Notes: a model not told the origin generated them from the sequence alone. DNA of 53,316 bases from Nanobdellota archaeon (GCA_038045445.1 JBBSYC010000010.1:1-53316); one strand, 5' to 3'. Positions 25,585 to 44,939 are shown, counted from the stretch's first letter. Numbers and translations are program-made.

Positions 25585-25644
25585 ATTCTCTTTGTTTTTA
25601 ACCCCTTTAAAAACCTTTTTAACCTACTCCAAACAACATTCAAT

Positions 25645-28600
25645 ATGACAACCGAACAAAAAATACGCCAACCAATCATAACAGTAGCAGGTCATGTGGA
25701 CCACGGAAAATGTGTAGCTGGAGATACACTCCTAACGCTTAGTACTGGAGAAATAAAAAAGGCAAAAGATATATTTAACGAGCATTTTGAAGAAAACAAA
25801 GCAAAAAAAATAGATGACGGCGTATTCCAAGACGTTTCAAAAAGCGGAATATTTGTATCTTCATTCAATGGAACTAATATAATAAAGAAAAATATAAGCC
25901 ACATATGGAGAAGAGAATCTCAAAAGTTAGTTGAAATCAAGATTGCCTCTGGAGACACTATTAAGACTACCCCAGAACACCTGTTTCTGGTATTTAATAA
26001 TAAGATATCTGAAAAAAGAGCAGACCAATTATCTGAAAATGATTTTGTAGTTTTTCCAGGGTGTTTAGTAACAGAAGATATGCAGATTAAAGATATAATA
26101 ATCAATAGGCTAAAAAAGTTAGATAATTTTGTCTGTTTTATAAATGAAAAATTTGATTCAGTCTTTGGCAAAATATTAAATGAAAATCGTAAATCTCTCG
26201 AAAAGAAACTATCTATAACTAATTTATCAAACAATATTAGAGAAAGAAAATTTAGGATAAAAGATTTATTTCTAATAGGCTATTATCTTGGAATAGAAGA
26301 CGAAAAGATATATTCAGTTATAGATTCCATAAAAAATTCATCAGATAAATGGAGAGTAGGACACACAAGTAATAAAGTTTTACTCTCAATTGAAAACCCT
26401 GAAGAATTAGGTTATGTATTAGGTTGTGTTGCTGGACACGGACATATAACAAAAACAACAGTTGTATTAAATAATAATGATGAGGATGTTCAAATAGAAT
26501 ATAGAAAATGTCTTAAAAAAATATTTGGTTTAGAGACAAAAATAGAAATGGGGCATACGTGCCAGATTATAAAAGATTCTGGAGGCAGAACATTTGCCAG
26601 AATACTAAGTGAAGTGTTTGATATCCCAGTTGGAAATAAGTCAGGTATAATAAAAGTGCCTGAAATAGCAAAAAAAAATAAAGATGTTTTTAAAGGGTTT
26701 TTTGCCGGGTTATTTGATACAGACGGATACGTCTCAAAAATAAATAACTGCATAGAGATTACTAGTAAAAGCAGTGAAATCATAAAGGAAAGTTCTATAC
26801 TTCTCTTAAATTTTGGTATTCTATCAAGTATATATGTAAAGAACGGTTTTCATAATCTAAGAATATCTAATAAAAAATATTTAAAAGGTTTTTTAGAGAA
26901 TATAACTCCCAGATTGAAAAGAAAAACAGAAAGGATAATAAAAGCTTATGAAAAATCACAGGCAAGTAGAATTTTTGATATAATCCCTATAGATAAAAAA
27001 CAATTTAAAAAACTTAAATTTTCAGGTAAGAAAAATATATTAGTGCCATATTTCAACAAATACCTCAAATCACAAAATATAACTAGAGATTTTGTATTAA
27101 AAGTGTTAGATAAAATAAAAGAAAATAATGAGTTTTCCAACTTTCTAAAAGAGTTGCTATGTAAAGATATTAGAATCGTAAGAGTATTATCTAAAAAAGA
27201 AGTAAAAAATACTGAAAAATATGTTTATGATTTCACAGTTCCAGAAACACATAATTTCATAGCGGAGAGGTTTATTATTCATAATACATCTTTACTGGAC
27301 TGCTTTAGAGACAGTCAAGTGCAAGAGAAAGAAGCCGGGGGGATAACTCAAAAGATTTCATTTACAAAATACCCAATTGACCAAATAAAAAAAACATGTC
27401 CTTTAATAGACAAGGCAAACATAGAGCTCAAGATACCAGGATTTCTCTTCATAGACACTCCAGGACATGCAGCATTCACTAATCTAAGACAAAGGGGTGG
27501 CTCTCTAGCAGATATAGCCATTTTAGTTGTAGACATAAAAGAAGGAATAAAACCTCAAACAGCAGAAGTAATCCAAATCTTAAAGGCAAACAAAACTCCA
27601 TTTGTGGTGGCTTTAAACAAAATTGATAAATTAGGGGGCTGGAAAAAAACAGAATCGATAAAAAATTCTCTTCAAACTCTACCCACACATGCAAAAGAAG
27701 AGTTTGAAATAGCTTTAGGAACTTTTCAAGGTTCATTACAAGCACATGGTTTTGATAGTGACTTATTTTATGAAATATCTGATTTTACAAAGAAAGTTGC
27801 AATAGTTCCATGTTCAGCAAGAACAAGAGAAGGAATCCCAGAGATACTTCTAGTTCTTTGTGGATTATCCCAAAAATTTCTGGCAGACAAATTAATAATA
27901 TCTACCGAAGCAAAGGGAATTCTATTAGAAATAAAGAAACAGAACTCCATGGAAACAGCAGAAGCCATACTTTACGACGGCTCATTAAAAGAAGGAGACA
28001 AAATAGGAGTAGCAACTCTAGATGGAAACTTAATAATAACTAAAATAAGATGTATTGAAGAAGTCTTGCCCCTTAGTTCAAAATTTAAGTCTGTAAGAGA
28101 AGTATTTGCAACTACAGGAATAAGACTTCAATTAATAGACAAAGAAGAAATTCTTTCAGGAATGCCATTTCAAAAAATACAGAATAATGAAAAAGAAATT
28201 AGAGAAAAATTTGCAAAAGAATTCAAAAACACATTAAATATAGATAAGGAAGGAATAATAGCGAAGGCAGATTCTTTAGGAAGTTTGGAAGCTCTTTTAA
28301 CTCTGTTAAGACAATCAAATATACCTGTAGTTAAAGCTTCAATAGGTCACATAAATAAATCTGACTTAGTAGGCGCAAAGGCAAATCTAGAACTAAATCC
28401 ATTAAATGCAATAATTCTAGGATTCAATGTAGAAAAAGAGCCAGACCTTCAAAGTGATAACATAAAGATAATAACTAATCAAGTAGTCTATAAGCTGATA
28501 GAAGATTTAGAAATCTGGAGAAAAAACAAGCAGGAAGAGATAGAGAAAGAAAGGATGATGGAGCTCTCGCAAATATGTAAACTTGAGATACTGCATAAAT

Positions 28601-28956
28601 ACCAGTTTAGAAACTCAAACCCTGCAATATTCGGAGTCAAAGTTTTAGCTGGAAAATTAAAAAAGAACATAAATATGATTGATGAAACTGGAGAGGATAT
28701 TGCAAGAGTAAAAGCAATACAAGAAGATAAAAATTCAGTTGAACAGGCAGAGGAAGGGAAAGAAGTAGCCATCTCCCTTCCAGGAACAAATTTTGAGCGT
28801 CAATTAGCAGACAAACAATATCTTTATAGTCAAATAAGCGAGAATCAATTCAAAATATTCAAGAAAAATAAAGACCTTTTATCAGAATCAGAAATAAAGG
28901 CAATAATGGAAGTGGCAGAAATCAAGAGAAAACGCAAGTCTGATTGGGGTAAGTAG
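25645..28956 (+). CDS. infB: Translation initiation factor aIF5B (IF-2) precursor containing an intein
   Basis: RQPIITVAGHVDHGK|TSLLD, EAGGITQ, DTPGHAAF, NKID; ATG 25645. Confidence 0.97.
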   Translation: MTTEQKIRQPIITVAGHVDHGKCVAGDTLLTLSTGEIKKAKDIFNEHFEENKAKKIDDGVFQDVSKSGIFVSSFNGTNIIKKNISHIWRRESQKLVEIKIASGDTIKTTPEHLFLVFNNKISEKRADQLSENDFVVFPGCLVTEDMQIKDIIINRLKKLDNFVCFINEKFDSVFGKILNENRKSLEKKLSITNLSNNIRERKFRIKDLFLIGYYLGIEDEKIYSVIDSIKNSSDKWRVGHTSNKVLLSIENPEELGYVLGCVAGHGHITKTTVVLNNNDEDVQIEYRKCLKKIFGLETKIEMGHTCQIIKDSGGRTFARILSEVFDIPVGNKSGIIKVPEIAKKNKDVFKGFFAGLFDTDGYVSKINNCIEITSKSSEIIKESSILLLNFGILSSIYVKNGFHNLRISNKKYLKGFLENITPRLKRKTERIIKAYEKSQASRIFDIIPIDKKQFKKLKFSGKKNILVPYFNKYLKSQNITRDFVLKVLDKIKENNEFSNFLKELLCKDIRIVRVLSKKEVKNTEKYVYDFTVPETHNFIAERFIIHNTSLLDCFRDSQVQEKEAGGITQKISFTKYPIDQIKKTCPLIDKANIELKIPGFLFIDTPGHAAFTNLRQRGGSLADIAILVVDIKEGIKPQTAEVIQILKANKTPFVVALNKIDKLGGWKKTESIKNSLQTLPTHAKEEFEIALGTFQGSLQAHGFDSDLFYEISDFTKKVAIVPCSARTREGIPEILLVLCGLSQKFLADKLIISTEAKGILLEIKKQNSMETAEAILYDGSLKEGDKIGVATLDGNLIITKIRCIEEVLPLSSKFKSVREVFATTGIRLQLIDKEEILSGMPFQKIQNNEKEIREKFAKEFKNTLNIDKEGIIAKADSLGSLEALLTLLRQSNIPVVKASIGHINKSDLVGAKANLELNPLNAIILGFNVEKEPDLQSDNIKIITNQVVYKLIEDLEIWRKNKQEEIEKERMMELSQICKLEILHKYQFRNSNPAIFGVKVLAGKLKKNINMIDETGEDIARVKAIQEDKNSVEQAEEGKEVAISLPGTNFERQLADKQYLYSQISENQFKIFKKNKDLLSESEIKAIMEVAEIKRKRKSDWGK
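25711..27285 (+). mobile_element. Intein with LAGLIDADG-type endonuclease domain (525 aa)
   Basis: Begins CVAGDT; TTPEH block B; LGCVAGHG and AGLFDTDG; ends YDFTVPETHNFIAERFIIHN with Thr at +1. Confidence 0.95.
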
Positions 28957-29556: not shown

Positions 29557-29943
29557 ATGCAATCCGCGTTAATCTTAACATTATCAATTCTAGGTTTAGC
29601 AATAACAATATACATCACAATAGCACACATCTTAAAAAAGAAAATAATTTGCCCAATAGATGGAAAAAGTTGCAACAAAGTCCTTGACAGCAAATACTCA
29701 AGAACTCTGGGCATAAAAAATGAAATAATCGGCTTCAGTTATTATCTCTTAATTATTGCAGGATTATTTATATTCCAATCAGAAAGCATAAACCTAATCT
29801 TAAAGATGATTTCCCCAATAGCGATGATATATTCAATAATCTTGTTTGGAATACAAATCAGAATAATAAAAAGCTACTGCTTTTGGTGCATCTCAACAGC
29901 AATAATAAATATCTTGCTCTTTATTTCAATAATTAATTCTTAA
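29557..29943 (+). CDS. Vitamin K epoxide reductase (VKOR) family protein
   Basis: C.....C..VL.S.YS loop and C-terminal CFWC in a four-TM protein. Confidence 0.9.
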   Translation: MQSALILTLSILGLAITIYITIAHILKKKIICPIDGKSCNKVLDSKYSRTLGIKNEIIGFSYYLLIIAGLFIFQSESINLILKMISPIAMIYSIILFGIQIRIIKSYCFWCISTAIINILLFISIINS

Positions 29944-31893
29944 TCAAATCTTCTTTCTTCTCAATAAATTAGCATTAGTAACAACAGTAATTGAAGATAG
30001 AGCCATTGCTATTTCAGCAATAACTGGATGTAAGACTCCTGCAACAGCCAATGGAATGGCAATAATGTTATATGCAAATGCCCAGAATAGGTTCTGTTTT
30101 ATCTTCTTAAAAGTAGCCTTTGATAAATTAATTGCTTCAACAACCCCAAGTAAGGAGCCACGAGCAAGAACAATATCTCCAGCTTCAATTGCAATGTCTG
30201 TTCCTGTGCCCATTGCAATACCCACATTGCTTTGTTTCAAAGCAGGAGCGTCATTTATTCCATCTCCTATGAAAGCAACCATTCCTTGATTTTGTAATTC
30301 TAAAACTTTTTTTGCCTTATCTTCTGGCAAAACACCTGCAATTACTTCTGAAATACCAACTTGTTTTGCAATAGCCATAGCAGTCCTTTCATTATCTCCT
30401 GTAATCATTACAGTTCTATATCTTTGAGTATTCAATTTGTTTATAGCTTCGATAGAGTCTTCCTTTATGGCATCAGCAACTGCAATAACTCCAATAACTT
30501 TTTTGTTTTCAGCAACAATCATTACAGTTTTTCCGCTAGATTCAAACCCTGAAATTTCATCTTCAAAAGAAGAATATTTTATTTTTTTATCATTCATTAA
30601 AGCCCTATTTCCAATTAATATTTCCTTTCCAGATATTTTTCCAATAACTCCCTTACCTCTGACAATACTAAAACCTGTAACTTTTTTGTATTTCTTTAAA
30701 GCAGCCTTTGTAACAATGGCGTGAGCAATAGGATGTTCACTCAATTTCTCCAAGCTAGCAGATATTTCAAGTAAATAGTTTTCCTTCACCTTAGAATAAA
30801 TATCGGTAACTTCAGGTTTTCCCTTTGTTATTGTACCTGTTTTGTCAAACACAACAATCTTGATTTCTTTCATTGTCTGAATTGCTTCTCCCTTTCGTAT
30901 CAATATTCCCTTTTTAGCCCCCATTCCAGACCCAACCATTAAAGCAGTTGGAGTAGCAAGTCCCAATGCGCAAGGACAAGCGATAACAAGTACAGCAACT
31001 CCAACTCCTATAGATCTACTCAAGTCTCCTGAAAAGAACCACCAATTAAGAAAAGTTAAAACTGCAAGAACAAGAATAATGGGAACAAATACAGAAGTAA
31101 TCTTATCAGCAAGTCTTTGTATTGGTATTTTCTCGCTCTGTGTTTGTTCAACTAATTCAATTATATGTGATAAAAACGTATCCTTTCCAATTTTTGTAGT
31201 TTTAACATAAAGTATACCATCCTGATTTATAGTAGCTCCAATAACTGTTTTTCCCTTTGATTTTTCGACAGGTAAGCTCTCACCAGTAACCATTGACTCA
31301 TCAACACTACTCTCACCTTTAACGACAATTCCATCGGTGGGTATTTTTTCTCCAGGTTTTACAATCATTACATCTCCAAGTTTAACTTCTTCAATTGGAA
31401 TTTCAATTTCATTGCCGTCTCTGATAACCGTAGCGTTCTTTGCACCAAGTTCAAGAAGTTTTCTTATTTCAGCAGAAGCACGACCTCTGGCCTTCGCCTC
31501 AACATATTTTCCAGTCGTAAAGAAAGCCATTATCATTGCAGCAACACCAGAATAATCCGCAACAACTTCCGTAAAAGAAAATATCCCTGTCAAGTAAGCA
31601 ACAAGAGTTCCCAGGGCTATAAGAGAATCCATGTTAAAGTAAAAAGTAAATAACCCCCTCATACCTGATTTCATTGTCTCAAAACCAAATATAAAAAGAA
31701 CAGGAAAACCCAAAACAAGAATAGTAATTATAGAATAAGGCATTTCAATAAGTTCAAACCCAAAGAGCCTTTCAGAAAGCATTATTATTGCAATAGGAAT
31801 AGTAAGCACCCATGACCAAAAAAGTTTTCTTTTCCAACTCTTTATTTCATCATCTTCAATAGGTTCTTCGTGATGATGTTCGTGTTCATTCAT
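29944..31893 (-). CDS. copA: Cu(I)-type P1B ATPase without a fused HMA domain
   Basis: [26 protein letters not shown] and M..SS; His-rich N-terminus (HEHHHEE). Confidence 0.95.
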
Positions 31894-32102
31894 TCTATCT
31901 TGGATACCTTATATCCTGCTCTCGCAACAGCTTTCTTTATTTCATCATCATTCACATTATCTTCAGCTTCAACTGTTCCTTTCTTCATCATTAGACTTAC
32001 AGAAGCTTCCTTAATACCAGATACTTTCTTCAAGCTCCTTTCGATGTTACTTGCGCACGAAGAACAATGCATACCCTCAATAGATATCTTAAGTTTTTTC
32101 AT
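31890..32102 (-). CDS. copZ: HMA copper chaperone
   Basis: GMHCSSC motif, AGY C-terminus; ATGA overlap with copA. Confidence 0.9.
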
Positions 32103-32466
32103 TTTGCCCACCATTTATAGATTGTAAAATATGGATGCAATATTGAGACATATGCTTTTCAATTAATTTCATAAGTGGTTTTATTGTTTCTAAATTCAAC
32201 GAATAATAACGATACTTTTTATCTATTTCAGAATTAACAAAACCACATTGTTTTAATCTAGCCAAATCATGAGAAACAGCAGTTTGATTCATATTCATTT
32301 CTTCCATAATCTCTGAGACATTTTTTTTTCCATTCATGAGTAGATTAATAATTTTTAATCTTGATTCGGAAACCAAAGTACCAAAGAAGATTTTATATGC
32401 TCCGTACATCTCTTCAGAGTTAAAACCTTTATCATGACATTTATGTAATATGTTTTTGTTGATCAT
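32089..32466 (-). CDS. ArsR/SmtB-family regulator (copy 1)
   Basis: SRLKII.LL, AVSHDL..LK..GFV, YRYY.L; C-terminal HM..YC.H. Confidence 0.92.
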   Translation of the reverse strand: MINKNILHKCHDKGFNSEEMYGAYKIFFGTLVSESRLKIINLLMNGKKNVSEIMEEMNMNQTAVSHDLARLKQCGFVNSEIDKKYRYYSLNLETIKPLMKLIEKHMSQYCIHILQSINGGQNEKT

Positions 32467-32485
32467 ATGACTTAATATTACATAT
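32465..32485. promoter_or_regulatory. Putative ArsR operator ATATG-N11-CATAT
   Basis: Inverted repeat overlapping the start codon; same motif and offset at the paralog (39145-39165). Confidence 0.7.
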
Positions 32486-32531
32486 CACTATTTAAATGTT
32501 TTGTCTGGTGTAAAGATAACCACAAAGATTT

Positions 32532-35129: not shown

Positions 35130-35243
35130 GCTCTTTACTGCTGATATAATAAACTTCTTTATAAAACTTACTAATTTTTTCGAATCCTAAATTTTATTTA
35201 GTTCGAGGTTTCATGCATACAAAAAGATTATTTTTTATTTTTT

Positions 35244-35510
35244 TCATCTTCTTCTCCTATTATTTATATGCGAACTATTTGATTGTAATTGTCTAATTAA
35301 CCACACAACAAATAATATAATAGCAACCCCAAAAACAAGCATAAATAAAAATCCGAAAGAACTCATAAAACCATAACCAGACATCATTCCATAGCCCCAT
35401 GACGAGCCAGAGCACCAACCAAAGCCACCCATTCCAAATCCGCCAAATAAAATAATAGCAAAAGCTACAACTAAAACAATTATCAAGGTGTTATTATTTG
35501 GGTTCTTCAT
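35244..35510 (-). CDS. Small two-TM protein with a Gly/Met-rich loop
   Basis: GGFGMGG...YGMMSGYGFM between helices; ATGA overlap; similar to 40571..40852. Confidence 0.7.
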   Translation of the reverse strand: MKNPNNNTLIIVLVVAFAIILFGGFGMGGFGWCSGSSWGYGMMSGYGFMSSFGFLFMLVFGVAIILFVVWLIRQLQSNSSHINNRRRR

Positions 35511-35875
35511 TTTACTATTATAACTCCTGTTCCCATTCCCATTGAGCATGAGAAGCCATAAGTACCTGCTTTAGATGGCGTAAACTCCACATAATCTTTA
35601 GAAGTCTTTAGATATTTGTTTATCTTAAAATCTCTTATAGTGAGGCTTCTAAAACACCCAGTAACGCTGGAATCAAGTTTTATTCTAACAGTTTCACCAA
35701 CATCTGCGTTTATTGCATTAGGATAATAATTAAAATCTTTAATTCCAAGAATAACCTCTCTATATTCTCCTGTGGGATTTGAGTTATTTTGGTATGACTC
35801 ACCCTTTAACATCATCACACCAAACACTACAATAACAAACACAATTCCGATCAAGTAAAGTGAAGAACTTTTCAT
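35507..35875 (-). CDS. Membrane-anchored cupredoxin-domain protein (CupA-like)
   Basis: Y.P..I....G..V, GC, and FTP...GTY.FSCSMGM. Confidence 0.85.
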   Translation of the reverse strand: MKSSSLYLIGIVFVIVVFGVMMLKGESYQNNSNPTGEYREVILGIKDFNYYPNAINADVGETVRIKLDSSVTGCFRSLTIRDFKINKYLKTSKDYVEFTPSKAGTYGFSCSMGMGTGVIIVK

Positions 35876-36540
35876 GCTAGCAAAGCACTCCTTGGCCCGA
35901 AAACAGATAACCATATTGTTAAAGTAGTTAGTATAAAACTTACAACTATTGTAAACAGTTCTTCAATTTCTGTTTTCCTTTCAAAAGATTTTGTCTCTTT
36001 ATAGATTAAGAAATTAAGACCAGTCATTATTATAGCTCCTATGATAAATATAACTACCCCACTAGCTCTTAAGTTGTCGTTAAACATCATTAAAGCAGTC
36101 ATTGCACCCATGAGCCCTCCCATGAATCCAGCCATCATTCCTTCCATTACTCCCATTATCCCGCAACATTTCCCACTTAATATTCCAAAAGTCATTCCAA
36201 CAAGCATTCCCCATATACTTCCCCAAAACATTCCGTTTGTGGCTCCAACAAAGAAACCAGGTAAAAATCCAGCCATCATCCCAACAGTCATACCTATCAT
36301 CATTCCAGACATACATGGAAGAGACTCGTAACCCCTTACTTTCTTAAGAGTAGGCATAATAAGTGCATAGCTTAATATTGCAAAAAAGATATAAAAACCA
36401 AACTTTGGAAGTAAACCATCTATATATCTTAATTTAAAGAAATAAACTATTCCAAATACTACAAAAGAAGTAATGAGTGAAATCAATACTGTCTTTGTTA
36501 TCCTTCCCAAATCCTTTTCTCTAAATTCCTTGAAACTCAT
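35872..36540 (-). CDS. Met/Gly-rich multi-TM protein
   Basis: CMSGMMIGMTVGMMAG and GKCCGIMGVMEGMMAGFMGGLMGAM within TM segments. Confidence 0.8.
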   Translation of the reverse strand: MSFKEFREKDLGRITKTVLISLITSFVVFGIVYFFKLRYIDGLLPKFGFYIFFAILSYALIMPTLKKVRGYESLPCMSGMMIGMTVGMMAGFLPGFFVGATNGMFWGSIWGMLVGMTFGILSGKCCGIMGVMEGMMAGFMGGLMGAMTALMMFNDNLRASGVVIFIIGAIIMTGLNFLIYKETKSFERKTEIEELFTIVVSFILTTLTIWLSVFGPRSALLA

Positions 36541-36575
36541 ACAATACCCAAATCGCCATACTATAAAAGCTCTTT

Positions 36576-36593
36576 TGTGAAACTAGTTTCACA
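36576..36593. promoter_or_regulatory. Perfect 18-bp palindrome TGTGAAACTAGTTTCACA, putative activator site
   Basis: At -53..-36 of ATG 36540, directly upstream of AAAGAGC-TTTTATAG (BRE/TATA). Confidence 0.75.
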
Positions 36594-36654
36594 GAATATT
36601 AGAGATGTTCAAAGGATTAACAAGCTTTATTAACCTATAATTTGAACCAATAAA

Positions 36655-37146
36655 ATGGAAAACAAGCACGTAGGTTACATCCTGTTAGGAGTTTCTATTT
36701 TAATAGCAATAATTGTATTTATGTTTCAGAGTGCCTTGACGAGCTTTGTAAGTGCAAGTTGCACTCTCGCTCACGGAGGAAACTCATGTCCAATGTATGA
36801 CACAATAACACAACAGACCTACCTTGCATTAGGAATAGTAGGAATACTAGTCATAGTATCCATTATAATGATTTTTTCTAAACCTCATGAGAGAGTAATC
36901 ATAAAAACAAAAACAGTAGAAAAGAAACCCCAAAAGAGAATAGTAGACACAAGCGATTTAAGACAAGAAGAAAAACAAGTTCTAAAAATAATTCAAGAAA
37001 ACAAGACAATATTTCAGGCAGATATCATTGACAAGACTGGTTTTGGAAAGGCAAAAGTAACGAGAATAATAGACAGATTAGAAGGCAAGGGTATTGTGGA
37101 AAGAAAGAGAAGAGGAATGACTAATATTGTAGTGATAAAGGAATAA
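36655..37146 (+). CDS. Two-TM membrane-anchored wHTH (MarR-like) regulator (copy 1)
   Basis: TM, loop SCTLAHGGNSCPMY, TM, then IFQADI...GFGKAKVTRIIDRLEGKGIVERKRRGMTN. Confidence 0.85.
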   Translation: MENKHVGYILLGVSILIAIIVFMFQSALTSFVSASCTLAHGGNSCPMYDTITQQTYLALGIVGILVIVSIIMIFSKPHERVIIKTKTVEKKPQKRIVDTSDLRQEEKQVLKIIQENKTIFQADIIDKTGFGKAKVTRIIDRLEGKGIVERKRRGMTNIVVIKE

Positions 37147-37209
37147 TGTTTTCTTGCATTGCCACAGGTATTAGAAAACTTTAAGATGTAGAAGTTGAAT
37201 CATATTAAT

Positions 37210-38643
37210 ATGAACAATCCAAATATTTTAGCCGAAAGATATTCCTCGGAAGAAATTAGAGATATCTTTTCCAACATTTCTAGAATAAAATTAGAACGCA
37301 CCTTTTGGGTAGAGATTATGAAAATTCAACAAAAAATGGGGGTTTTAATTCAGGATTATGTGATAGAAAAATATGAAAAAGCAATTGAGAATATTGATTT
37401 TAATAGAATAACAGATATTGAAATGATTAGAAGACATGACATAAAGGCTAGAATTGAAGCTTTTAATGAAGCAGCGAAAATTGAATCTAAAGAACAGCAT
37501 ATACATAAGGGGATGACAAGTAGAGACCTATCAGATAATATTGACCAAATCCAGATAAAAAAAGCATCAGAAATAATATTCAATAAACTTGTCCACATAC
37601 TAAAAAGTTTTCTTGACAAGGCGGAAAAATATAAAGAGGTTATAATAGTTGGGCGAACACATATGCAACCAGCACAACCAACTACATTAGGCAGAAGGAT
37701 GGCCATGTTTGCCGAGGAATTATTACATCATTTAAAGGGATTTGAAAATTTTATTGAAATCTATCCATTTAGAGGAATTAAAGGACCGGTATCAACTCAA
37801 TTGGACATGATAAATATTTTAGGAAATGAGAATAATGTTGTTGAATTTGAAAGAATTATCGCCAAAAAATTTGGTTTTAACAACATATTAATATCTCCAG
37901 GTCAAATTTATCCAAGATCTTTGGATGCAGAACTTATTCAGAGAATTAGTTTAATGTGCTCATCACTTCAGAATTTCTCTAATACAATAAGACTGATGGC
38001 AAGAGAAGAGCTAATTACTGAAGGATTTCAGGAGGGACAAGTTGGATCAAGTTCAATGCCTCATAAAATGAATACTAGAAGCTCTGAAAGAATTTGGTCT
38101 CTTTCTGAATTAATTAAATCTTATGTGGATGCTTCATCTAGAATATCTGGTTCACAATGGGAAGAAGGAGATGTTTCAGAATCCGCCATTAGGAGAATTA
38201 TCATTCCAGACTGTTTTTATGCAATGGATGGAATATGCCTAACCACGTTAACAATTTTAAATGAAATGAAGATATTCCCCCAAGTAATAGACAATGAGCT
38301 AACTAAATATATTCCATTTCTAGCAACTTCCGAAATATTAACTTTGGCGGTACAGTGCGGGGCTGGGCGAGAAGAATCTCACGAAGTTATAAAAAAACAT
38401 GCAATTAATACAATAAATATGATTAGAGAAGGAAAAATAGCCCAATTCTCTAACGAACTAAGCAAGGACTTATTTTTCATAAATCTGGGAATTGATGAAA
38501 TTAAAATTAATGAAATACTAAAAAGAAGGGAATTATTTCTTGGAAGATCTAAAAATCAAATAGCTGAAGTCTCAAAAAAAGCTAGTTACTTTTTTAATAA
38601 ATATCCTTCATTGCTCAATTTAAACATAAAGTCCATACTTTAA
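37210..38643 (+). CDS. purB: Adenylosuccinate lyase
   Basis: RHDIKA, HIHKGMTSRD, GRTH.Q.AQPTTLG, GSSSMPHKMN signature. Confidence 0.95.
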   Translation: MNNPNILAERYSSEEIRDIFSNISRIKLERTFWVEIMKIQQKMGVLIQDYVIEKYEKAIENIDFNRITDIEMIRRHDIKARIEAFNEAAKIESKEQHIHKGMTSRDLSDNIDQIQIKKASEIIFNKLVHILKSFLDKAEKYKEVIIVGRTHMQPAQPTTLGRRMAMFAEELLHHLKGFENFIEIYPFRGIKGPVSTQLDMINILGNENNVVEFERIIAKKFGFNNILISPGQIYPRSLDAELIQRISLMCSSLQNFSNTIRLMAREELITEGFQEGQVGSSSMPHKMNTRSSERIWSLSELIKSYVDASSRISGSQWEEGDVSESAIRRIIIPDCFYAMDGICLTTLTILNEMKIFPQVIDNELTKYIPFLATSEILTLAVQCGAGREESHEVIKKHAINTINMIREGKIAQFSNELSKDLFFINLGIDEIKINEILKRRELFLGRSKNQIAEVSKKASYFFNKYPSLLNLNIKSIL

Positions 38644-38663
38644 ATCGCTATGATTCAACAAAA

Positions 38664-39113
38664 ATGAAAATACTCTTCAAAAAACCCTATATCTACATAG
38701 CATTCTTAATCTTCTTAGTCTATCTTGGAATTAATATCTTATTAAGCGGTTTCTACAACACAATTCCATTAATTCTTGTTTATGCAAAAACAGTCAATTG
38801 GCTCAAATTGGGAATTTCTATTCTTCTGACAATAATAATAGGAATATTAATCTCGTTTAATTCAATTCTTATTTATATCAAATATCAAGAAAGGAGAAAG
38901 TGTAAAAAGGAGATTGCATTAAGTAGCGCGGGAGCAATAGGGGGATTAGTAGCAGGAGTTTGTCCTCTTTGTATTACAGGCCTCATACCATTAATTTTGG
39001 GGCTAATAGGAATATCATTCTCTTTTGCCAGCCTACCCTTTGGAGGAATTGAAATTCAAGTTTTAGTGATAATAATACTTGTAGCAAGTTTGGTAAATCT
39101 CGTTAAAAGATAG
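38664..39113 (+). CDS. Membrane protein with a CPLC motif
   Basis: KPY N-terminus and GVCPLC...LPFGGIEI; similar to 9459..9983. Confidence 0.75.
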   Translation: MKILFKKPYIYIAFLIFLVYLGINILLSGFYNTIPLILVYAKTVNWLKLGISILLTIIIGILISFNSILIYIKYQERRKCKKEIALSSAGAIGGLVAGVCPLCITGLIPLILGLIGISFSFASLPFGGIEIQVLVIIILVASLVNLVKR

Positions 39114-39144
39114 TTAAAATTTAGACCGTAAGCTTTAAATAATC

Positions 39145-39165
39145 ATGTGTATCAAGAAATCATAT
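39145..39165. promoter_or_regulatory. Putative ArsR operator ATGTG-N11-CATAT
   Basis: Same spacing and offset as 32465-32485; TTTAAATA at -30..-23 in both promoters. Confidence 0.7.
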
Positions 39166-39526
39166 GATAAATAAACACACATTACATAAAGAACACCACG
39201 AGAAATATTCAGAAAAAGAGATTTATGGAGCATATAAGCTGTTTTTTGGAACTCTTTTTTCAGATTCTCGTTTAAAGATAATAAATATGTTAAGAAGGGG
39301 TAGAAAGAACGTGTCAGAAATTGTTTCAGAACTAAAATCAAGAGATAGAACAGCCATCTCTCATGATTTGGCTAGATTAAAACTTCATGGATTTGTAAAG
39401 TCAGAAGTAAAGGGGAAATACAGGTATTATGAATTAAACAGTGAAACAATAAAGCCATTAATGGAATTGATTGGCAAACACATGTCTAAGTATTGTATTC
39501 ATATATTGAGGTCTATGAAAAAATAG
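39164..39526 (+). CDS. ArsR/SmtB-family regulator (copy 2)
   Basis: Close paralog of 32089..32466 (MINK..LHK.H, YGAYK.FFGTL, HMS.YCIHIL). Confidence 0.92.
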   Translation: MINKHTLHKEHHEKYSEKEIYGAYKLFFGTLFSDSRLKIINMLRRGRKNVSEIVSELKSRDRTAISHDLARLKLHGFVKSEVKGKYRYYELNSETIKPLMELIGKHMSKYCIHILRSMKK

Positions 39527-39527
39527 T

Positions 39528-40019
39528 ATGGAAAACAAAAACGTCGGATGGATAATGATTGGAATTTCAATATTAATTGTATTATTAGTCTTTTTATTCA
39601 ATAACACTCTAATGGAATCAGTAAGAAACAGCTGTTTCATCCAGCACGGAGACGTTGAATCATGCGAGATGTACAACTCTGTGAATTATCAAACCTACCT
39701 TGCTTTAGGAATTGTTGGAATACTAGTTATCTTTAGTTTATTTCTTATATTTTCAAAGCCAGATGAAAAAATAATAGTTAAAAAAATAAAAGAAAAAAAG
39801 CCTCAAAAAGAAATTAATCTCTCATCATTCAGGCAAGAAGAAAAGCAAGCGTATAATCTTGTCAGGGAAAATGGGGCAATATTTCAAGCAGAACTTATAG
39901 AAAAAACAGGTTTTAGTAAGGCACGAATGACTCGTATTATTGACAAATTGGAAGGCTCTGGATTAGTAGAAAGAAAAAGGAGAGGAATGACTAATGTTGT
40001 AGTCATGAAAGGCCAATAA
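39528..40019 (+). CDS. Two-TM membrane-anchored wHTH regulator (copy 2)
   Basis: Paralog of 36655..37146; loop SCFIQHGDVESCEMY. Confidence 0.85.
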   Translation: MENKNVGWIMIGISILIVLLVFLFNNTLMESVRNSCFIQHGDVESCEMYNSVNYQTYLALGIVGILVIFSLFLIFSKPDEKIIVKKIKEKKPQKEINLSSFRQEEKQAYNLVRENGAIFQAELIEKTGFSKARMTRIIDKLEGSGLVERKRRGMTNVVVMKGQ

Positions 40020-40020
40020 A

Positions 40021-40407
40021 ATGGAAATAGAAGATTTTGCATATATTGTAAAAACAAATAAAGCTTTTGAAGAGTCAGTCGTTTCAGTTTTAAAATCAGT
40101 TGAGAAAAAAGGATGGACAATATTTCAAGTTTATGATTTAAAGGAAAGGCTTGAAGTTAAAGGATTTATTCAAGATAGATTAAAAATAATAGAAATATGT
40201 TCGGGCAAGCATGCAAACACATTATTGAATATTAACAAGATATTTTCAGTATGTATGCCTTGCAGAATCAACATTTTTGAAGATAACCAAATAATTAAAA
40301 TAGCATCAGTAAAACCAAGCATCCTCTCCGATTTTTCCAATGAAGCCAAAAAAGCACTGGAAGAAGTTGAAAATGAGATTAAAGAGATAATTGAGGAAGC
40401 TAAATGA
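40021..40407 (+). CDS. DUF302-domain protein
   Basis: IIEIC...A, MPCRI motifs. Confidence 0.85.
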   Translation: MEIEDFAYIVKTNKAFEESVVSVLKSVEKKGWTIFQVYDLKERLEVKGFIQDRLKIIEICSGKHANTLLNINKIFSVCMPCRINIFEDNQIIKIASVKPSILSDFSNEAKKALEEVENEIKEIIEEAK

Positions 40408-40574
40408 AAAACATAAAAGAAAAAAGAGATGGTGAACAGCAATGTGATAAATGTGGCTTGAGTTATAACAATAAAATTAAGGCTAATAAGTGTCAAGAGT
40501 GGTGCAAGAAGCATAAATCATGTAATCTTGAAATAACAAAGCATGCTATAAATAAAAAGGAGGTATTAAGATGA
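40404..40574 (+). CDS. 56-aa Cys/His-rich zinc-finger-like protein (absent from the ORF track)
   Basis: Hand translation MKNIKEKRDGEQQCDKCGLSYNNKIKANKCQEWCKKHKSCNLEITKHAINKKEVLR*; ATGA overlaps with both neighbours. Confidence 0.8.
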   Translation: MKNIKEKRDGEQQCDKCGLSYNNKIKANKCQEWCKKHKSCNLEITKHAINKKEVLR

Positions 40575-40852
40575 AAACAAATAAAATAGCTATATCAATA
40601 AGCTCTACATTTTTCTTTGCTTTAATCCTAGTCTCGGCACAGCAATATGGAATGATGGGCTCTGACGGCCAATTTACAGCTTTAAATAATGGAGGAGCTG
40701 GAGGGATGATGGGTATGATGAATATGATGACTGGATATGGGAATTACGGCTCTGGAATGATGTTTCTCGGCTGGATAACCTATCTGCTTACAATTACATT
40801 GATGATTGCAGCAACATACTGGCTTATTCAAACAGCAAAAAGAAAGAGATAA
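40571..40852 (+). CDS. Small protein with signal/TM and a Gly/Met-rich loop
   Basis: YGMMG...GGMMGMMNMMTGYG..GSGMM; GGAGGT ribosome-binding site. Confidence 0.75.
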   Translation: MKTNKIAISISSTFFFALILVSAQQYGMMGSDGQFTALNNGGAGGMMGMMNMMTGYGNYGSGMMFLGWITYLLTITLMIAATYWLIQTAKRKR

Positions 40853-40911
40853 TCAAAAGAATTATTTTTTTTATTTTTTTTAACTAACAAAACATGAAAG
40901 GGGGTGTAAAA

Positions 40912-41178
40912 ATGACGGATAAATTAAGTCCAAAAAGAACAGCAAACGCATTGGCAGTAACAGCAGGCATAGTCTCGCTTGTATGTTATATCTTAATTCT
41001 CATAACCCCAAGTGGAACAGTAAGCCTTTTCGGAGCAATATTCCATGGAATTGACCTAAGCCAGATTGCAGTTGAACCAGCATCAGTTGGAAGCGGAATC
41101 TTGGGAGTCATTGAAGTAATAATTCTCGGATGGATAATTGGATGGCTATTTGCTAAAATATATAACAAATTCAAGTAA
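40912..41178 (+). CDS. Two-TM membrane protein (DUF5676-like)
   Basis: SLVC, IFHGID, GWLFA.IYN; GGGGGT ribosome-binding site before ATG 40912. Confidence 0.75.
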   Translation: MTDKLSPKRTANALAVTAGIVSLVCYILILITPSGTVSLFGAIFHGIDLSQIAVEPASVGSGILGVIEVIILGWIIGWLFAKIYNKFK

Positions 41179-41219
41179 ATCCCAACAACATATTTGATTT
41201 ATTTTCTTTTAAATTCTAA

Positions 41220-41237
41220 TGCGGAACCAGTTCCGCA
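41220..41237. promoter_or_regulatory. 18-bp palindrome TGCGGAACCAGTTCCGCA, putative activator site
   Basis: At -53..-36 of ATG 41273, followed by AAAGCGC-ATATATAA; same geometry as 36576-36593. Confidence 0.75.
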
Positions 41238-41272
41238 AAAGCGCATATATAATTTATTTTCCTAAAAAAATC

Positions 41273-41962
41273 ATGGAAAACGAAAACCAAACCATGAAAG
41301 GAGGTAAAAAAACCAACAAAGAGACTATTGTCCAATATTTTATAATAGCTGTTCTTGGAGTCCTTCTCCTATATAATGGGATAAGAATTTATGGAGGCGA
41401 TTCAGGCATAACTGGAAACGCATTAGCAACGGGAATAGGAACTGTTTCTGCTTTAGATGTATTGCCTAAGGGAGTTCCTGCTATTTACGGAAGCGAGATA
41501 GGAATATCTTACGAGGATGTTTCTGCAAGCAATCCGTCATTGGCAGATGCAACAATGGCAAAACTTTCAGCATACGAAGATATGCAGTTGAACAGCGAAC
41601 AGATGGAAAGATACATCAAAATAGGAAGTTCAATTGCATGTGAATACTGTTGCGGTGCTAAAACTCTAGTTTTCAGTAACGGAGAAAGGGCATGTGGATG
41701 CGCTCATAGCTATGCAATGAGGGGTTTAGCAAAATATCTATTGACAGAGCATCCAGATATGACTGATTTGGAAATATTGAATGAATTGGGAAAATGGAAG
41801 GTTCTGTTCTTCCCAGGAGTTCATGAGAAAAAAGCCCAAGTATTGGATGAAAAAGGAATAGACTATGCTGATTACGTTAATCTTGCTTCAAACATATACA
41901 GAGGCGCAGAAAATCAGGCATCAGCATCAGGAGGAAATAGTCAAATGGTTGGCGGTTGCTAA
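41273..41962 (+). CDS. Membrane-anchored Cys-rich protein ending in MVGGC
   Basis: TM, then CEYCCG...ACGCAHS.AM; start set at 41273 by promoter geometry. Confidence 0.8.
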   Translation: MENENQTMKGGKKTNKETIVQYFIIAVLGVLLLYNGIRIYGGDSGITGNALATGIGTVSALDVLPKGVPAIYGSEIGISYEDVSASNPSLADATMAKLSAYEDMQLNSEQMERYIKIGSSIACEYCCGAKTLVFSNGERACGCAHSYAMRGLAKYLLTEHPDMTDLEILNELGKWKVLFFPGVHEKKAQVLDEKGIDYADYVNLASNIYRGAENQASASGGNSQMVGGC

Positions 41963-42007
41963 TAAGGATTTTTTTGATTTTTCCCTTTAGCATCTAACTA
42001 AATTAAA

Positions 42008-42319
42008 ATGGATTGTTGTACAAACAAAAGAAACGAACACGACTCAGTGAAGTCGGATAAAGAAAATAAAGTAAAAGGGGGTAAGCGCATGGAAACAAAA
42101 AACATAATGCTGTGGGCAGTTATAGGAGTATTGCTTATTGTTGCAGTATTCATGACTGTTAAAGTGTCATCATTAAATGATTCAACAAGCGGAAATCTTG
42201 ACACAAGAGGCTGGACAGCTAATGAGATAATGAACTATGAAATGCACGGAACAGTCCCTGCAAGATTAGCTCAAGGAAGCAACACCCCCGCATCTGGCGG
42301 AATGGTCGGAGGCTGTTAA
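42008..42319 (+). CDS. Single-TM protein starting MDCC and ending MVGGC
   Basis: MNYEMHG motif; second in-frame ATG at 42089 with a GGGGGT ribosome-binding site. Confidence 0.75.
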   Translation: MDCCTNKRNEHDSVKSDKENKVKGGKRMETKNIMLWAVIGVLLIVAVFMTVKVSSLNDSTSGNLDTRGWTANEIMNYEMHGTVPARLAQGSNTPASGGMVGGC

Positions 42320-42367
42320 ATAGATATTTTTGATTTTTTATTTTTTAAATTTAGAGTAGGAGAAAAA

Positions 42368-42931
42368 ATGAAAAGAAACACACAAAAAGAAAACAAGAAG
42401 GAAAAAAGAAAATTAATATTTAGAATAGCTACGCTACTCTTATTCCCATTAATAGCCATAATATCTTTTATGCCAAATGTAATGGCTCACTGCCCCTTAT
42501 GTACCGCAGCCACAATAGTAGGCGTCGGAGTAACAAGATCATTGGGTTGGGATGATTCAATTGTAGGAGTCTTTGTTGGAGCAATGATTGTATCATCTGC
42601 ATTATGGCTCAATAATATCCTAAAGAAAAAAAATATTGGGGGTAATTCTCTATTAAGAGTAGGAAGCATTACGGTAGCAACATTTGTGCTTACAATATCG
42701 AGCTTCTATTTTGCAGGATTGTTTGGTCCTGCAAATACTTATAGAATATTTGGAATGGAAAAGATAATATTTGGAACACTTTCAGGTGGAATAATTAGCC
42801 TAGTTTCTTTTTATTATAGCAATCATCTAAAAAATAAAAATGGAGGAAAAGTGCTCTTTAATTATCAAACAATGCTCATTACTTTGGCTACTTTGATTAT
42901 TAACGCAGGGTTATTTGCACTAATATTTTAA
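42368..42931 (+). CDS. Membrane protein with an HCPLC motif
   Basis: Signal-like helix ending VMA^HCPLC; several TM segments. Confidence 0.8.
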   Translation: MKRNTQKENKKEKRKLIFRIATLLLFPLIAIISFMPNVMAHCPLCTAATIVGVGVTRSLGWDDSIVGVFVGAMIVSSALWLNNILKKKNIGGNSLLRVGSITVATFVLTISSFYFAGLFGPANTYRIFGMEKIIFGTLSGGIISLVSFYYSNHLKNKNGGKVLFNYQTMLITLATLIINAGLFALIF

Positions 42932-43365
42932 TGGAATTGTTTTATATTTTACTCGGGATAATAGGGCTATTTTTTATTCTTTTGACAATAAAGAATATTA
43001 TAAAACATAAATCAAAATGGAGTTTTTGTGTTATCTGCGTCTCAATAAGTCTGACATGGATAATCTTATTAGTATTGTATTTCTCAAAGTCATTTAACAA
43101 TATTCTTATAATCTCATTATTAATGGGCATGTCCATAACAGGGATTTATTATTTAGCAGAGAAGAAAATTAAGAATGATAAAATAAAAGTATTTCGTCTA
43201 CCATTTATCTTGACTTTAATAACAATTATTTATTATATTTTAACTTTTGAGAACATCATAAATAGCATATTTATATTATCTGGCTTATGGGTGCTTTTCT
43301 TCCTAATTTACTCGTGGAACAACTCAAATTTTGTAAAAAAACTATTGGAGTGTTGCAAAGAATGA
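42931..43365 (+). CDS. Membrane protein with CVIC and C-terminal ECCKE
   Basis: About five TM segments; coupled to both neighbours. Confidence 0.8.
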   Translation: MELFYILLGIIGLFFILLTIKNIIKHKSKWSFCVICVSISLTWIILLVLYFSKSFNNILIISLLMGMSITGIYYLAEKKIKNDKIKVFRLPFILTLITIIYYILTFENIINSIFILSGLWVLFFLIYSWNNSNFVKKLLECCKE

Positions 43366-43829
43366 AACACCATCATTACAACTACATCTGGATAAGTATA
43401 TTAGTAATTTCTATAATTGGAGCATTATTTCTTGTCAAGACAGCCTATGCAAACCCCCTAAACCTGCCAGATTATGCGTTTACAAATACTAAGATAAAAG
43501 AAGCATACTCTTTCGCAAAGTTAGAATCTGATAAATTAACCAATCTACCTTGTAACTGCGGTTGCATGAGCGACGCGAAAAATCACGGAGGTAGAATGCA
43601 TTCAAGAGGATTAATAGATTGCTTTATGTCTGGAGACATAAATAATAAAGGAACTTGGGATAGTCATGCAAGCGAATGTGGATTATGCTACGAAGATGCC
43701 CTATATGCAAAAGAATTATATCAACAGGGAAAAACAAAAGATGAAATAAAATCTCTTCTTGAAATAAAATACGCATCACAAACAATAAGCTCAAAAACAG
43801 TTTATGGAGAAATGAACTATGGAGATTAA
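43362..43829 (+). CDS. PCYCGC-motif family protein
   Basis: AY.FA...LPCNCGC...H....DCF...WDSHASECGLC; start MKHHHY overlaps the upstream stop. Confidence 0.8.
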   Translation: MKHHHYNYIWISILVISIIGALFLVKTAYANPLNLPDYAFTNTKIKEAYSFAKLESDKLTNLPCNCGCMSDAKNHGGRMHSRGLIDCFMSGDINNKGTWDSHASECGLCYEDALYAKELYQQGKTKDEIKSLLEIKYASQTISSKTVYGEMNYGD

Positions 43830-44256
43830 TGGTAAATCTTTGGCATATGGTTTATTATCAGGGTTAGGAATACTAATTCTTTATCTTTCTGTTCTCACCT
43901 TGTTTCAAAGCTATGGATTTGCACTCTACGAACTAAAAAGGCTTTGGATGTGGATAATTCCTCTATCAATAGGTTTTGGGACCCAGATAGGATTATATAT
44001 TTCAATAAAACACGATGCGGTCATAAAAGCAGGAGTCTCGACTTCAGGAACAATTTCAGGAGGTTCAATGATAGCCTGCTGCACACATTATCTGTTAAGT
44101 GTTCTGCCTTTGATAGGAATAACTGGTCTAAGCACACTAACTATGTTTTTAATGAGTTATCAAAAAGCGTTTTTTTCAATAGGGATAGCTTCAAGCGCAT
44201 TGGGAATTATATTCATGATTCGTCACAAAATAAAAATGAAAGGGGGTTCATGCTAA
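43819..44256 (+). CDS. Four-TM protein with an MIACCTH motif
   Basis: GFGTQIGLY and SMIACCTH. Confidence 0.75.
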   Translation: MEINGKSLAYGLLSGLGILILYLSVLTLFQSYGFALYELKRLWMWIIPLSIGFGTQIGLYISIKHDAVIKAGVSTSGTISGGSMIACCTHYLLSVLPLIGITGLSTLTMFLMSYQKAFFSIGIASSALGIIFMIRHKIKMKGGSC

Positions 44257-44496
44257 ATGGAAATTAAAGGAAAAGTAGTTCTTTATGGAGCATTAATCTT
44301 AGTAGTCTTTTTGCTTTTATTGTTCAGCCTTGGAGTCTTTGATTTAAGTAAAAATAAAACAATTCAATCAGTTTCTAAAGAAACAGGAGGCATTCCAGAA
44401 AAATGTCAGATTCCAGAAGGACAAGAAATAGATTCATGGAAAGAGCATTTAGGGCACCATGCAGAAACAAAAGATTGCCTAAAGTACTTCAATTAA
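44257..44496 (+). CDS. Small anchored His/Cys protein
   Basis: TM, then IPEKC..P.G....WKEHLGHH....DCL. Confidence 0.7.
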   Translation: MEIKGKVVLYGALILVVFLLLLFSLGVFDLSKNKTIQSVSKETGGIPEKCQIPEGQEIDSWKEHLGHHAETKDCLKYFN

Positions 44497-44497
44497 A

Positions 44498-44722
44498 ATG
44501 AAAGAAACTAAGCTAACTGTCAGAAACATCTATTGCAATGATTGCTCGGAGCATGTAAAAGAAGAGCTTAAGAAATTAGGTGCCAAGTCAATCAATATTA
44601 ATATGGACAGTTCAGACATACAAAAAGTTTCGCTAAGATGTACTAAATGTTTAAAGAAAAAAGAAATAATAGATTTGCTTCAAAAAAGAGGGATAGAATT
44701 AATTTCCATTAGATATTCCTAA
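44498..44722 (+). CDS. HMA-domain protein
   Basis: IYCNDC..HV motif in a 74-aa protein. Confidence 0.75.
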   Translation: MKETKLTVRNIYCNDCSEHVKEELKKLGAKSININMDSSDIQKVSLRCTKCLKKKEIIDLLQKRGIELISIRYS

Positions 44723-44723
44723 A

Positions 44724-44939
44724 ATGAAGGGTCACATGTTTAAGATGGCTCTCGCATGTGTAATTCCCTTACTGTTAATATTGCTACTTCCATTAATTGG
44801 GCTTCCTAAGAGTCTATCAAGCACAATAGCAATAGTCTTAATGATGCTACTTCACTTCTTTATGATGAAAGACCATATAAATAAAAAGGGTCCTCATAAA
44901 AACAAAACTCTTCAAAAATCTCCAGTAGCAAGCTTTTAA
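44724..44939 (+). CDS. Small two-TM His/Met protein (DUF2933-like)
   Basis: HM..M.LAC..P and MMLLHFFMM..H. Confidence 0.65.
   Translation: MKGHMFKMALACVIPLLLILLLPLIGLPKSLSSTIAIVLMMLLHFFMMKDHINKKGPHKNKTLQKSPVASF

Follow-up and report, generated by a model that had tools for sequence, protein, structure and literature searches.

Membrane-bound one-component regulators of transcription are already known, and the locus described here holds candidates of a different build. It lies in a 53,316-nt stretch of DNA from a Nanobdellota archaeon (GCA_038045445.1, JBBSYC010000010.1:1-53316), the whole of which is called the window below. It contains two related palindromes, each upstream of an operon, and two paralogous genes for membrane proteins with a transmembrane (TM) hairpin and a winged helix-turn-helix (wHTH), the TM-wHTH proteins. 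We read the palindromes as operators that control a small regulon for metal or thiol stress at the envelope, one conserved across DPANN archaea of the Pacearchaeota/Woesearchaeota type, with a probability of about 0.68 for this reading as a whole. The bacterial representatives closest in principle are ToxR, TcpP and CadC, in which an OmpR-type wHTH at the N-terminus is followed by a single TM helix and a folded periplasmic domain; in ToxR and CadC, cysteines outside the cytoplasm play a part. Two-tier copper sensing, at the envelope and in the cytoplasm, is represented by CusS/CusR versus CueR of Escherichia coli.

ArnR and ArnR1 of Sulfolobus acidocaldarius are membrane-bound, with an N-terminal HTH, a HAMP-like region, a sensor domain and two C-terminal TM helices (PMC6396743). 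ArnR is needed for the induction of archaellum genes, and loss of its two promoter boxes abolishes flaB promoter activity (PMC6396743). CopR of Pyrococcus furiosus (PF0739) is metal-responsive and divergent from its target. Its sites immediately precede promoter elements, and a single bound regulator acts on both of two divergent promoters, which are about 96-122 bp apart (PMC7830388). It is soluble, octameric and Lrp-like, consists of an HTH and a cytoplasmic TRASH domain, and wraps about 150 bp of DNA with a weak semi-palindromic motif (PMC7830388). For TrmBL1 of P. furiosus, sites upstream of the transcription factor B (TFB) recognition element (BRE) and TATA box activate, while downstream sites repress (PMC4706686).

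Like ToxR, TcpP and CadC, the TM-wHTH proteins would be one-component regulators with a membrane-tethered winged helix and a sensing part outside the cytoplasm. Their order is reversed, however, with a 2-TM hairpin first and a MarR-type wHTH last, and the ‘sensor’ is only the hairpin tip, about 30 residues. The C-terminal wHTH gave no match to Trans_reg_C, the OmpR/PhoB type, and the AlphaFold2 model has two helices in place of a single TM helix with a folded periplasmic domain. An earlier note on this DNA had called the mode of action ToxR-style; this serves as a working analogy, but domain order, number of TM helices and type of wHTH all differ. ArnR has in common with the proposed regulator that it is an archaeal membrane-bound transcription factor. 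It governs archaellum/pili genes upon starvation and has neither an outer Cys/His/Met loop nor a metal regulon; the TM-wHTH proteins in turn lack the N-terminal HTH, any HAMP match and the C-terminal TM helices. CopR resembles the present locus in its divergent layout, the starts being about 91 bp apart in symmetric TM-wHTH loci. It differs in that the TM-wHTH proteins are membrane-anchored and paired with a sharp 14-bp palindrome, and the C-terminal TRASH domain of CopR/CopT found no match in them at E<=0.01. The wHTH fold and a palindromic operator are shared with MarR (E. coli MarR, 5h3r / 3vb2). Canonical MarR proteins are soluble, of ~140-150 aa, with N- and C-terminal dimerisation helices, whereas the TM-wHTH proteins have no such flanking helices and align over only about 60 residues. 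The parallel to CusRS/CueR is that the products of the palindrome regulon are nearly all membrane-bound or outward-facing while a P-type ATPase and an HMA protein follow an ArsR gene; histidine kinase and response regulator are missing, and a single polypeptide would do both jobs. None of ToxR, TcpP, CadC and ArnR shares the TM-wHTH architecture.

A palindrome at a fixed promoter position

The two sites and their promoters are as follows.

36576..36593, no strand: operator 1, a perfect 18-bp palindrome with the conserved 14-bp core TGAAACTAGTTTCA at 36578-36591
36561..36575, minus strand: BRE-like AAAGAGC (36575-36569) and TATA-like TTTTATAG (36568-36561) of operon 1
41220..41237, no strand: operator 2, the variant site TGCGGAACCAGTTCCGCA
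41238..41252, plus strand: BRE-like AAAGCGC and TATA-like ATATATAA of operon 2, ATG 41273

Operator 1 (TGTGAAACTAGTTTCACA) is palindromic at 18/18 positions. In operator 2 the two 8-nt arms match perfectly but the CA at the centre is not palindromic; the site fits the clade-wide relaxed form G-N-AAC-Y-A-GTT-N-C. The distance from the end of the palindrome to the ATG is exactly 36 nt in both cases (36540, minus strand; 41273, plus strand). AAAG(A/C)GC comes next, and then a TATA-like octamer at -28..-21 from that ATG. The earlier note had reported both sequences at these coordinates and in an identical promoter position, and on both counts it was accurate. It had also described the changes between the sites as symmetric, which is the case for positions 3/16 and 5/14 but not for 9/10.

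At <=3 mismatches to the consensus, seven strand-wise matches were found in the window where 0.43 were expected, a number reached in 0/100 shuffles. Across the whole assembly (980,512 nt, 29 contigs, 33% G+C) the two palindromes are the only matches at <=1 mismatch, and the relaxed pattern in the form G-N-AAC-Y-R-GTT-N-C occurs only twice. Chance likeness of the two palindromes is excluded. A third match, at 888-905 with 2 mismatches, falls within a 182-aa coding frame and was taken as chance.

The promoter context was surveyed in 821 aligned upstream regions of crudely called genes from this genome. A TATA signal (TTTATAAA) stands at -29..-22 from the ATG and a BRE-like signal (CCGAAAGC) at -37..-30, and no Shine-Dalgarno signal was found in these regions, so that the transcriptome appears predominantly leaderless, with the ATG as transcription start within 1-2 bases. 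The ATG at 36540 is the probable leaderless start of operon 1. With leaderless starts, the palindromes lie at about -53..-36 of the transcription start, followed by BRE at -35..-29 and TATA at -28..-21; they abut the BRE without overlap, which is the placement of an archaeal upstream activating site. The AAAG(A/C)GC element is in part the usual BRE-TATA junction of this genome (AAGC followed by TTTA).

Conservation was followed in 61 related DPANN genomes, in assemblies 61-98% complete; related contigs bear the names of metagenome-assembled genomes of Candidatus Pacearchaeota, Woesearchaeota or Nanoarchaeota. Of the 61 genomes, 30 have the exact 12-mer GAAACTAGTTTC, each in one or two copies that add up to 32 sites; 3 have a reversed control pattern, once each. 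Exact-core sites with flanks of at least 45 nt were pooled from all fetched loci, giving 43 unique sites. At 32 of these, one or both sides of the 18-mer have, 36-37 nt away, the ATG of an open reading frame of at least 45 aa. The site-to-ATG distance is 36 nt in 30 cases, 37 in 7 and 38 in 7, with no other distance seen more than 4 times.

From the gene side, the relaxed motif G-N-AAC-Y-R-GTT-N-C was sought within 130 nt upstream of unique orthologues of the two lead genes. It stands 5′ of 18/18 orthologues of the gene for the 222-aa Met-rich membrane protein; for the 229-aa Cys-rich protein the count is 16/17. In most cases the ATG is at exactly +36. The lone exception is L083, where the Cys-rich gene comes second and the site stands before the first gene of the operon. 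The earlier note had staked its proposal on conservation of the motif upstream of orthologous operons, and that conservation is present. Variants at the same place differ at positions 5/14 and 9 (GTAAC, GGAAC, centre CA). When the sites are oriented to their target, positions 3-16 are near-invariant, 17-18 (CA) well kept and 1-2 variable. The operator proper is therefore the inner 14-mer; the 18-bp palindrome of the earlier note holds as a site but not as the conserved extent, and the CA next to the promoter is better counted with the BRE, as its start. These comparisons support a cis-element that is conserved and keeps its position upstream of BRE/TATA in orthologous operons, and the palindrome is almost certainly a regulatory operator. 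The runs listed with DNA matching 35200-42400 are all DNA runs of groundwater metagenomes, and none is an RNA run. The site of G059 (L031) adjoins an AAA_14/DUF4143 gene in a genome in which no TM-wHTH was found and is probably due to chance.

The operons behind the two sites contain the following genes.

36540 to 35244, minus strand: extent of operon 1
35872..36540, minus strand: first gene of operon 1, a 222-aa Met/Cys-rich polytopic membrane protein (motif in 18/18 orthologue upstream regions)
35507..35914, minus strand: Cupredoxin_1 protein with an N-terminal hydrophobic anchor (PF13473, E 2.1e-10)
35244..35549, minus strand: last conserved gene of operon 1, a 101-aa Gly/Met-rich membrane protein
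41273..41962, plus strand: first gene of operon 2, a 229-aa membrane-anchored Cys-rich protein (CEYCCG...CGC) with an MVGGC end (motif in 16/17 orthologue upstream regions)
42008..44939, plus strand: rest of operon 2, with a 103-aa MVGGC-tailed protein (42008-42319), CPLC and CC-motif membrane proteins, a PCYCGC/CYCXC protein (probable start 43362), an HMA-like protein and small membrane proteins

The 222-aa protein matched no Pfam or NCBIfam family and the 229-aa protein no known family, and for both the Protein Atlas returned only ‘hypothetical protein’ clusters. The synteny of the cupredoxin in operon 1 is kept in relatives. The genes of operon 2 are separated by short gaps or overlap, and the upstream regions of the two internal genes scored, 42008 and 42368, rank at the 7th and 39th promoter percentiles, which fits a single transcript. 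Other genes found behind the site in relatives encode HMA+DsbD_2 fusions, an HMA protein, a second cupredoxin and small CxxC membrane proteins. The products of the regulon are nearly all membrane-bound or outward-facing and rich in soft-metal ligands. The C-terminal pentapeptide MVGGC is identical on the proteins of 41273-41962 and 42008-42319.

The TM-wHTH protein as candidate reader

The two paralogues lie between the palindromes.

36655..37146, plus strand: TM-wHTH paralogue A, with a 2-TM hairpin (residues 3-74), a basic disordered linker and a MarR-type wHTH (residues 104-161)
39528..40019, plus strand: TM-wHTH paralogue B, with architecture and loop motif as in A

Both are 163 aa long, and they are 61% identical over residues 1-162 (57% in a 28-sequence alignment). 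A DUF7343/MarR-type winged helix is recognised in each above the curated Pfam cut-offs: 42.3 bits for DUF7343 (cut-off 27.6) and 31.3 bits for MarR (cut-off 24.6) in paralogue A, 41.9 and 32.2 bits in paralogue B. The domain also matches MarR_2, HTH_24 and TrmB. The loop SC-x3-HG-x3/4-C-x-MY is present in both, as expected from the earlier note, which had described two paralogous two-TM wHTH proteins sharing it. The outer tip of paralogue A carries C36, H40, C45 and M47. Its Cys/His/Met residues had been put forward as sensory, and they are conserved: in an alignment of 28 sequences with identities down to 41%, C36 and C45 never change and H40 is kept in at least 90%. M47 is kept in most sequences.

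An AlphaFold2 model built on the 28-sequence alignment (mean predicted local distance difference test, pLDDT, 82.4) has helices 3-40 and 46-74 joined by a 5-residue turn, without a further outer domain. The linker at 81-93 is of low confidence (pLDDT <50), and residues 104-161 form a three-helix winged helix with a β-wing. The segment between the hydrophobic stretches has no Lys or Arg, and the linker is K/R-rich. As the DNA-binding domain must be inside, the hairpin tip is predicted to face out. Foldseek gave no match to the PDB at E<=0.001 (best E 3.5e-3), and its matches were to generic wHTH domains only (MarR, ROK N-domain, MecI), at a root mean square deviation of 1-2 Å. Each alignment is confined to 60-70 columns, so the dimerisation helices of MarR are lacking, and any dimerisation would therefore come from the TM hairpin or the DNA. 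A two-copy complex prediction scored 0.01 against a mark of 0.42, which weighs neither for nor against a dimer.

Homologues in public records amount to at least 954 clusters, named only ‘MarR family transcriptional regulator’ or ‘uncharacterized membrane protein’. No description of the TM-wHTH family and no mention of DUF7343 were found in the literature covered, which leaves out subscription journals.

A near-full-length TM-wHTH homologue was found in 37/61 related genomes (one, G009, truncated). The earlier note had suggested co-occurrence with this family as a check, and the protein was found in 28 of the 30 genomes with the exact 12-mer and in 9 of the 31 without it (not found in 2 and 22, respectively). 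These counts are to be read with the completeness of the assemblies and with the existence of near-variants of the site. In many relatives the wHTH gene is divergent from the target with the palindrome midway, 36 nt from the target ATG and 36-38 nt from that of the regulator. Such a symmetric arrangement is a classic mark of a factor that acts locally and regulates itself. In the window, paralogue A is divergent from operon 1 and the palindrome lies 62 nt 5′ of its ATG; its own promoter is strong (96th percentile) and 26 nt further from the palindrome. Judged by co-occurrence and gene order, the TM-wHTH protein is very probably the reader of the palindrome.

A division of labour, in which A reads site 1 and B reads site 2, is not supported. 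The exact 12-mer of site 2 occurs only in this genome, its sole other match (G008) being inside a coding frame. The two genomes with a B orthologue (G016, G003) are without an assembled Cys-rich operon, and the recognition-helix residues of B (KARM) occur singly in proteins paired with canonical sites. GTAAC or GCAAC half-sites occur only beside the ‘GKV[KG]xTRLLDKLEAKQ’ helix type (L015, L019, L028, L081, L085, L087, L092), an association that hints at protein-DNA covariation; this helix type also pairs with canonical sites, and the association is confounded by phylogeny.

Proposed activation from outside the cell and competing readings

In the proposed mechanism the N-terminal helical hairpin of the 163-aa regulator, present here as two paralogues, would serve as membrane anchor and place the Cys-x3-His-Gly-x3/4-Cys-x-Met tip outside the cell. 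A flexible basic linker of ~30 residues would let the C-terminal MarR-type winged helix reach the DNA. There the 14-bp core TGAAAC-TA-GTTTCA would be occupied by a dimer; with 10 bp between their centres, the two 8-nt arms lie on one face of the helix. The dimer would sit directly upstream of the BRE of the leaderless promoters, at about -53..-36 of the start. Arrival of a soft metal at the outer tip, most likely Cu(I), or oxidation of its cysteines would then cause TFB and TBP to be recruited or stabilised. The output would be the switching on of the Met-rich membrane protein/cupredoxin operon and of the Cys-rich operon (CxxCC, PCYCGC, HMA), and in many relatives also of the regulator's own divergent gene. 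At symmetric loci one dimer could serve two promoters with starts about 91 bp apart.

The palindrome, its conservation and fixed promoter geometry, its co-occurrence with the TM-wHTH gene and the conserved loop residues are observed; we infer that the protein binds the site, dimerises and activates, and that it responds to Cu or to thiol stress. The case for activation comes from the position of the site, by analogy with TrmBL1, and makes it probable that the TM-wHTH protein activates; the fixed register suggests contact with TFB. That the tip senses a soft metal or thiol oxidation is about as probable as activation. The assignment to Cu(I) specifically is tentative. Still more tentative is the fuller proposal of a single-polypeptide DPANN sensor in which a Cys2-His-Met tip binds Cu(I) and a symmetric dimer contacts TFB at two back-to-back leaderless promoters, as a transmembrane activator unlike ToxR and ArnR in architecture. 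In such a device the duplication seen here could serve to tune the two operator variants, one of the paralogues being under ArsR control.

Several observations weigh against a TM-wHTH protein that senses the outside metal or thiol state and activates both operons. The protein is present in 9/31 genomes without the exact 12-mer, and two motif-bearing genomes (G047, G059) showed none; the 61 genomes are kin, so co-occurrence counts overstate independence. The motif is found in only 19/53 unique wHTH upstream regions, and autoregulation is thus not general. Of the putative ligands, M47 is replaced in 3/33 and H40 in 2/33 aligned family sequences. The P-type ATPase of this genome is not behind a palindrome, so that copper is argued for by the cupredoxin, the HMA domain and the Met/Cys content alone. 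Finally, the target promoters rank at the 62nd-74th percentile of the promoters of this genome and show no obvious weakness, a finding that would fit a repressor just as well.

Repression is the best placed of the alternatives and a serious rival, though less likely than activation. The same protein would act at the same site, the tethered dimer hindering TFB until metal or Cys oxidation at the tip releases it. Derepression is the mode of ArsR, CsoR and CopY. The near-average to good BRE/TATA scores of the target promoters agree with this, as does the direct abutment of site and BRE, where a steric conflict with TFB is possible. It has been reported for CopR of P. furiosus that a bound regulator blocks one of two divergent promoters depending on spacing (PMC7830388). 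However, the core overlaps neither BRE nor TATA, no site lies at or after the start, and the strict 36-nt register suggests protein-protein contact over mere occlusion. In archaea, tests of site position found activation from upstream sites (PMC4706686).

A second reading, a shade less probable than repression, takes the outer Cys pair as a redox switch or structural disulfide, with the protein reporting envelope thiol-oxidative stress and not metal. The two cysteines are the only invariant residues of the loop, His and Met being sometimes replaced; DsbD_2-type thiol-disulfide membrane proteins are among the targets in relatives, and a VKOR gene is nearby. The retention of H40 in at least 90% and of Met in most sequences, on the other hand, fits a soft-metal site, and the regulon is rich in cupredoxin, HMA, Met- and CxxC-motif proteins.

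It is very improbable that an ArsR/SmtB protein of the island, or some other soluble factor, binds the palindrome and that the TM-wHTH is only a co-regulated neighbour. ArsR genes are present in the island (39164; 32089-32466), and the TGAA...TTCA of the core is, as we take it, reminiscent of ArsR/SmtB operators. The earlier note had itself named binding by the ArsR proteins as a refutation of its proposal. Yet a search at E<=1e-5 found no ArsR homologue in 16/30 motif-bearing genomes, four of these 16 being 90-92% complete. Most +/-1.5-kb loci in which the site stands next to the wHTH gene are without ArsR, and both ArsR genes of the window have a different repeat over their own start.

A chance resemblance, or a palindrome that acts as an RNA hairpin or terminator, can be set aside in spite of sites just after the wHTH stop codon in some relatives, given the match statistics in window, genome and relatives, the fixed +36 register to a downstream ATG, the AAAG, not a T-run, that comes after the site, and the leaderless starts, which put the site upstream of both divergent transcripts.

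The surrounding island and the wider meaning

Around the TM-wHTH genes and their putative targets lie the following further genes.

39164..39526, plus strand: ArsR/SmtB-type regulator, first gene of the TM-wHTH B operon
40021..41178, plus strand: genes after wHTH B, namely DUF302, a 56-aa Cys-rich protein, a 93-aa Met-rich membrane protein and a DUF5676 2-TM protein
32089-32466, minus strand: second ArsR-type regulator
about 31890-32102, minus strand: 70-aa HMA protein
29944-31893, minus strand: 649-aa P-type ATPase with CPC motif and His-rich N-terminus

The regulator at 39164-39526 scores 29.5 bits for Pfam HTH_5 (cut-off 22) and 53.0 bits for NCBIfam NF033788 (HTH_metalloreg; cut-off 55), and an inverted repeat of its own, different from the palindrome, spans its start (39145-39182). 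Both ArsR genes start inside TCATATGA (39133-39182; 32455-32500), an octamer flanked by the inverted repeats ATGTGT...ACACAT and ATGTAATAT...ATATTACAT, directly after a TTTAAATA box. This repeat over the ArsR starts, just downstream of TATA, looks like a shared ArsR auto-operator in a repressor-type position.

The ATPase presumably has a Cu(I)-type transmembrane signature. No palindrome copy was found in the cluster at 29944-32466; the ATPase with its HMA protein, and the wHTH-B operon, each stand behind a separate ArsR-type gene. This suggests two tiers, with ArsR-type proteins for the cytoplasm-facing pump and the TM-wHTH for envelope proteins.

A VKOR-family membrane protein (29557-29943, plus strand; PF07884, E 1.9e-22) adjoins the metal cluster and is a possible source of extracytoplasmic disulfides for the Cys-rich envelope proteins. 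Adenylosuccinate lyase (Lyase_1, ADSL_C; 37195-38643, plus strand), unrelated to metal, lies between TM-wHTH A and the rest of the island; in relatives, ribosomal protein S6e often comes after the regulator instead. An aIF5B/IF-2 GTPase gene (25543-28956, plus strand) has an intein inserted into the part encoding the GTP-binding domain; the intein carries a LAGLIDADG homing-endonuclease domain (Intein_splicing, LAGLIDADG_3).

DPANN archaea are uncultivated, with genomes of about 1 Mb and few regulators, and their gene regulation is barely known. The locus offers a complete testable circuit from sequence: a putative sensor-regulator, a 14-bp operator, a fixed promoter geometry and a mostly unnamed Cys/Met-rich envelope regulon, for whose unnamed families the circuit is a handle. 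It would serve as a very compact model of how a signal crosses the membrane to reach the basal transcription machinery of archaea, and the operator/regulator pair is open to in vitro test without growing the organism.

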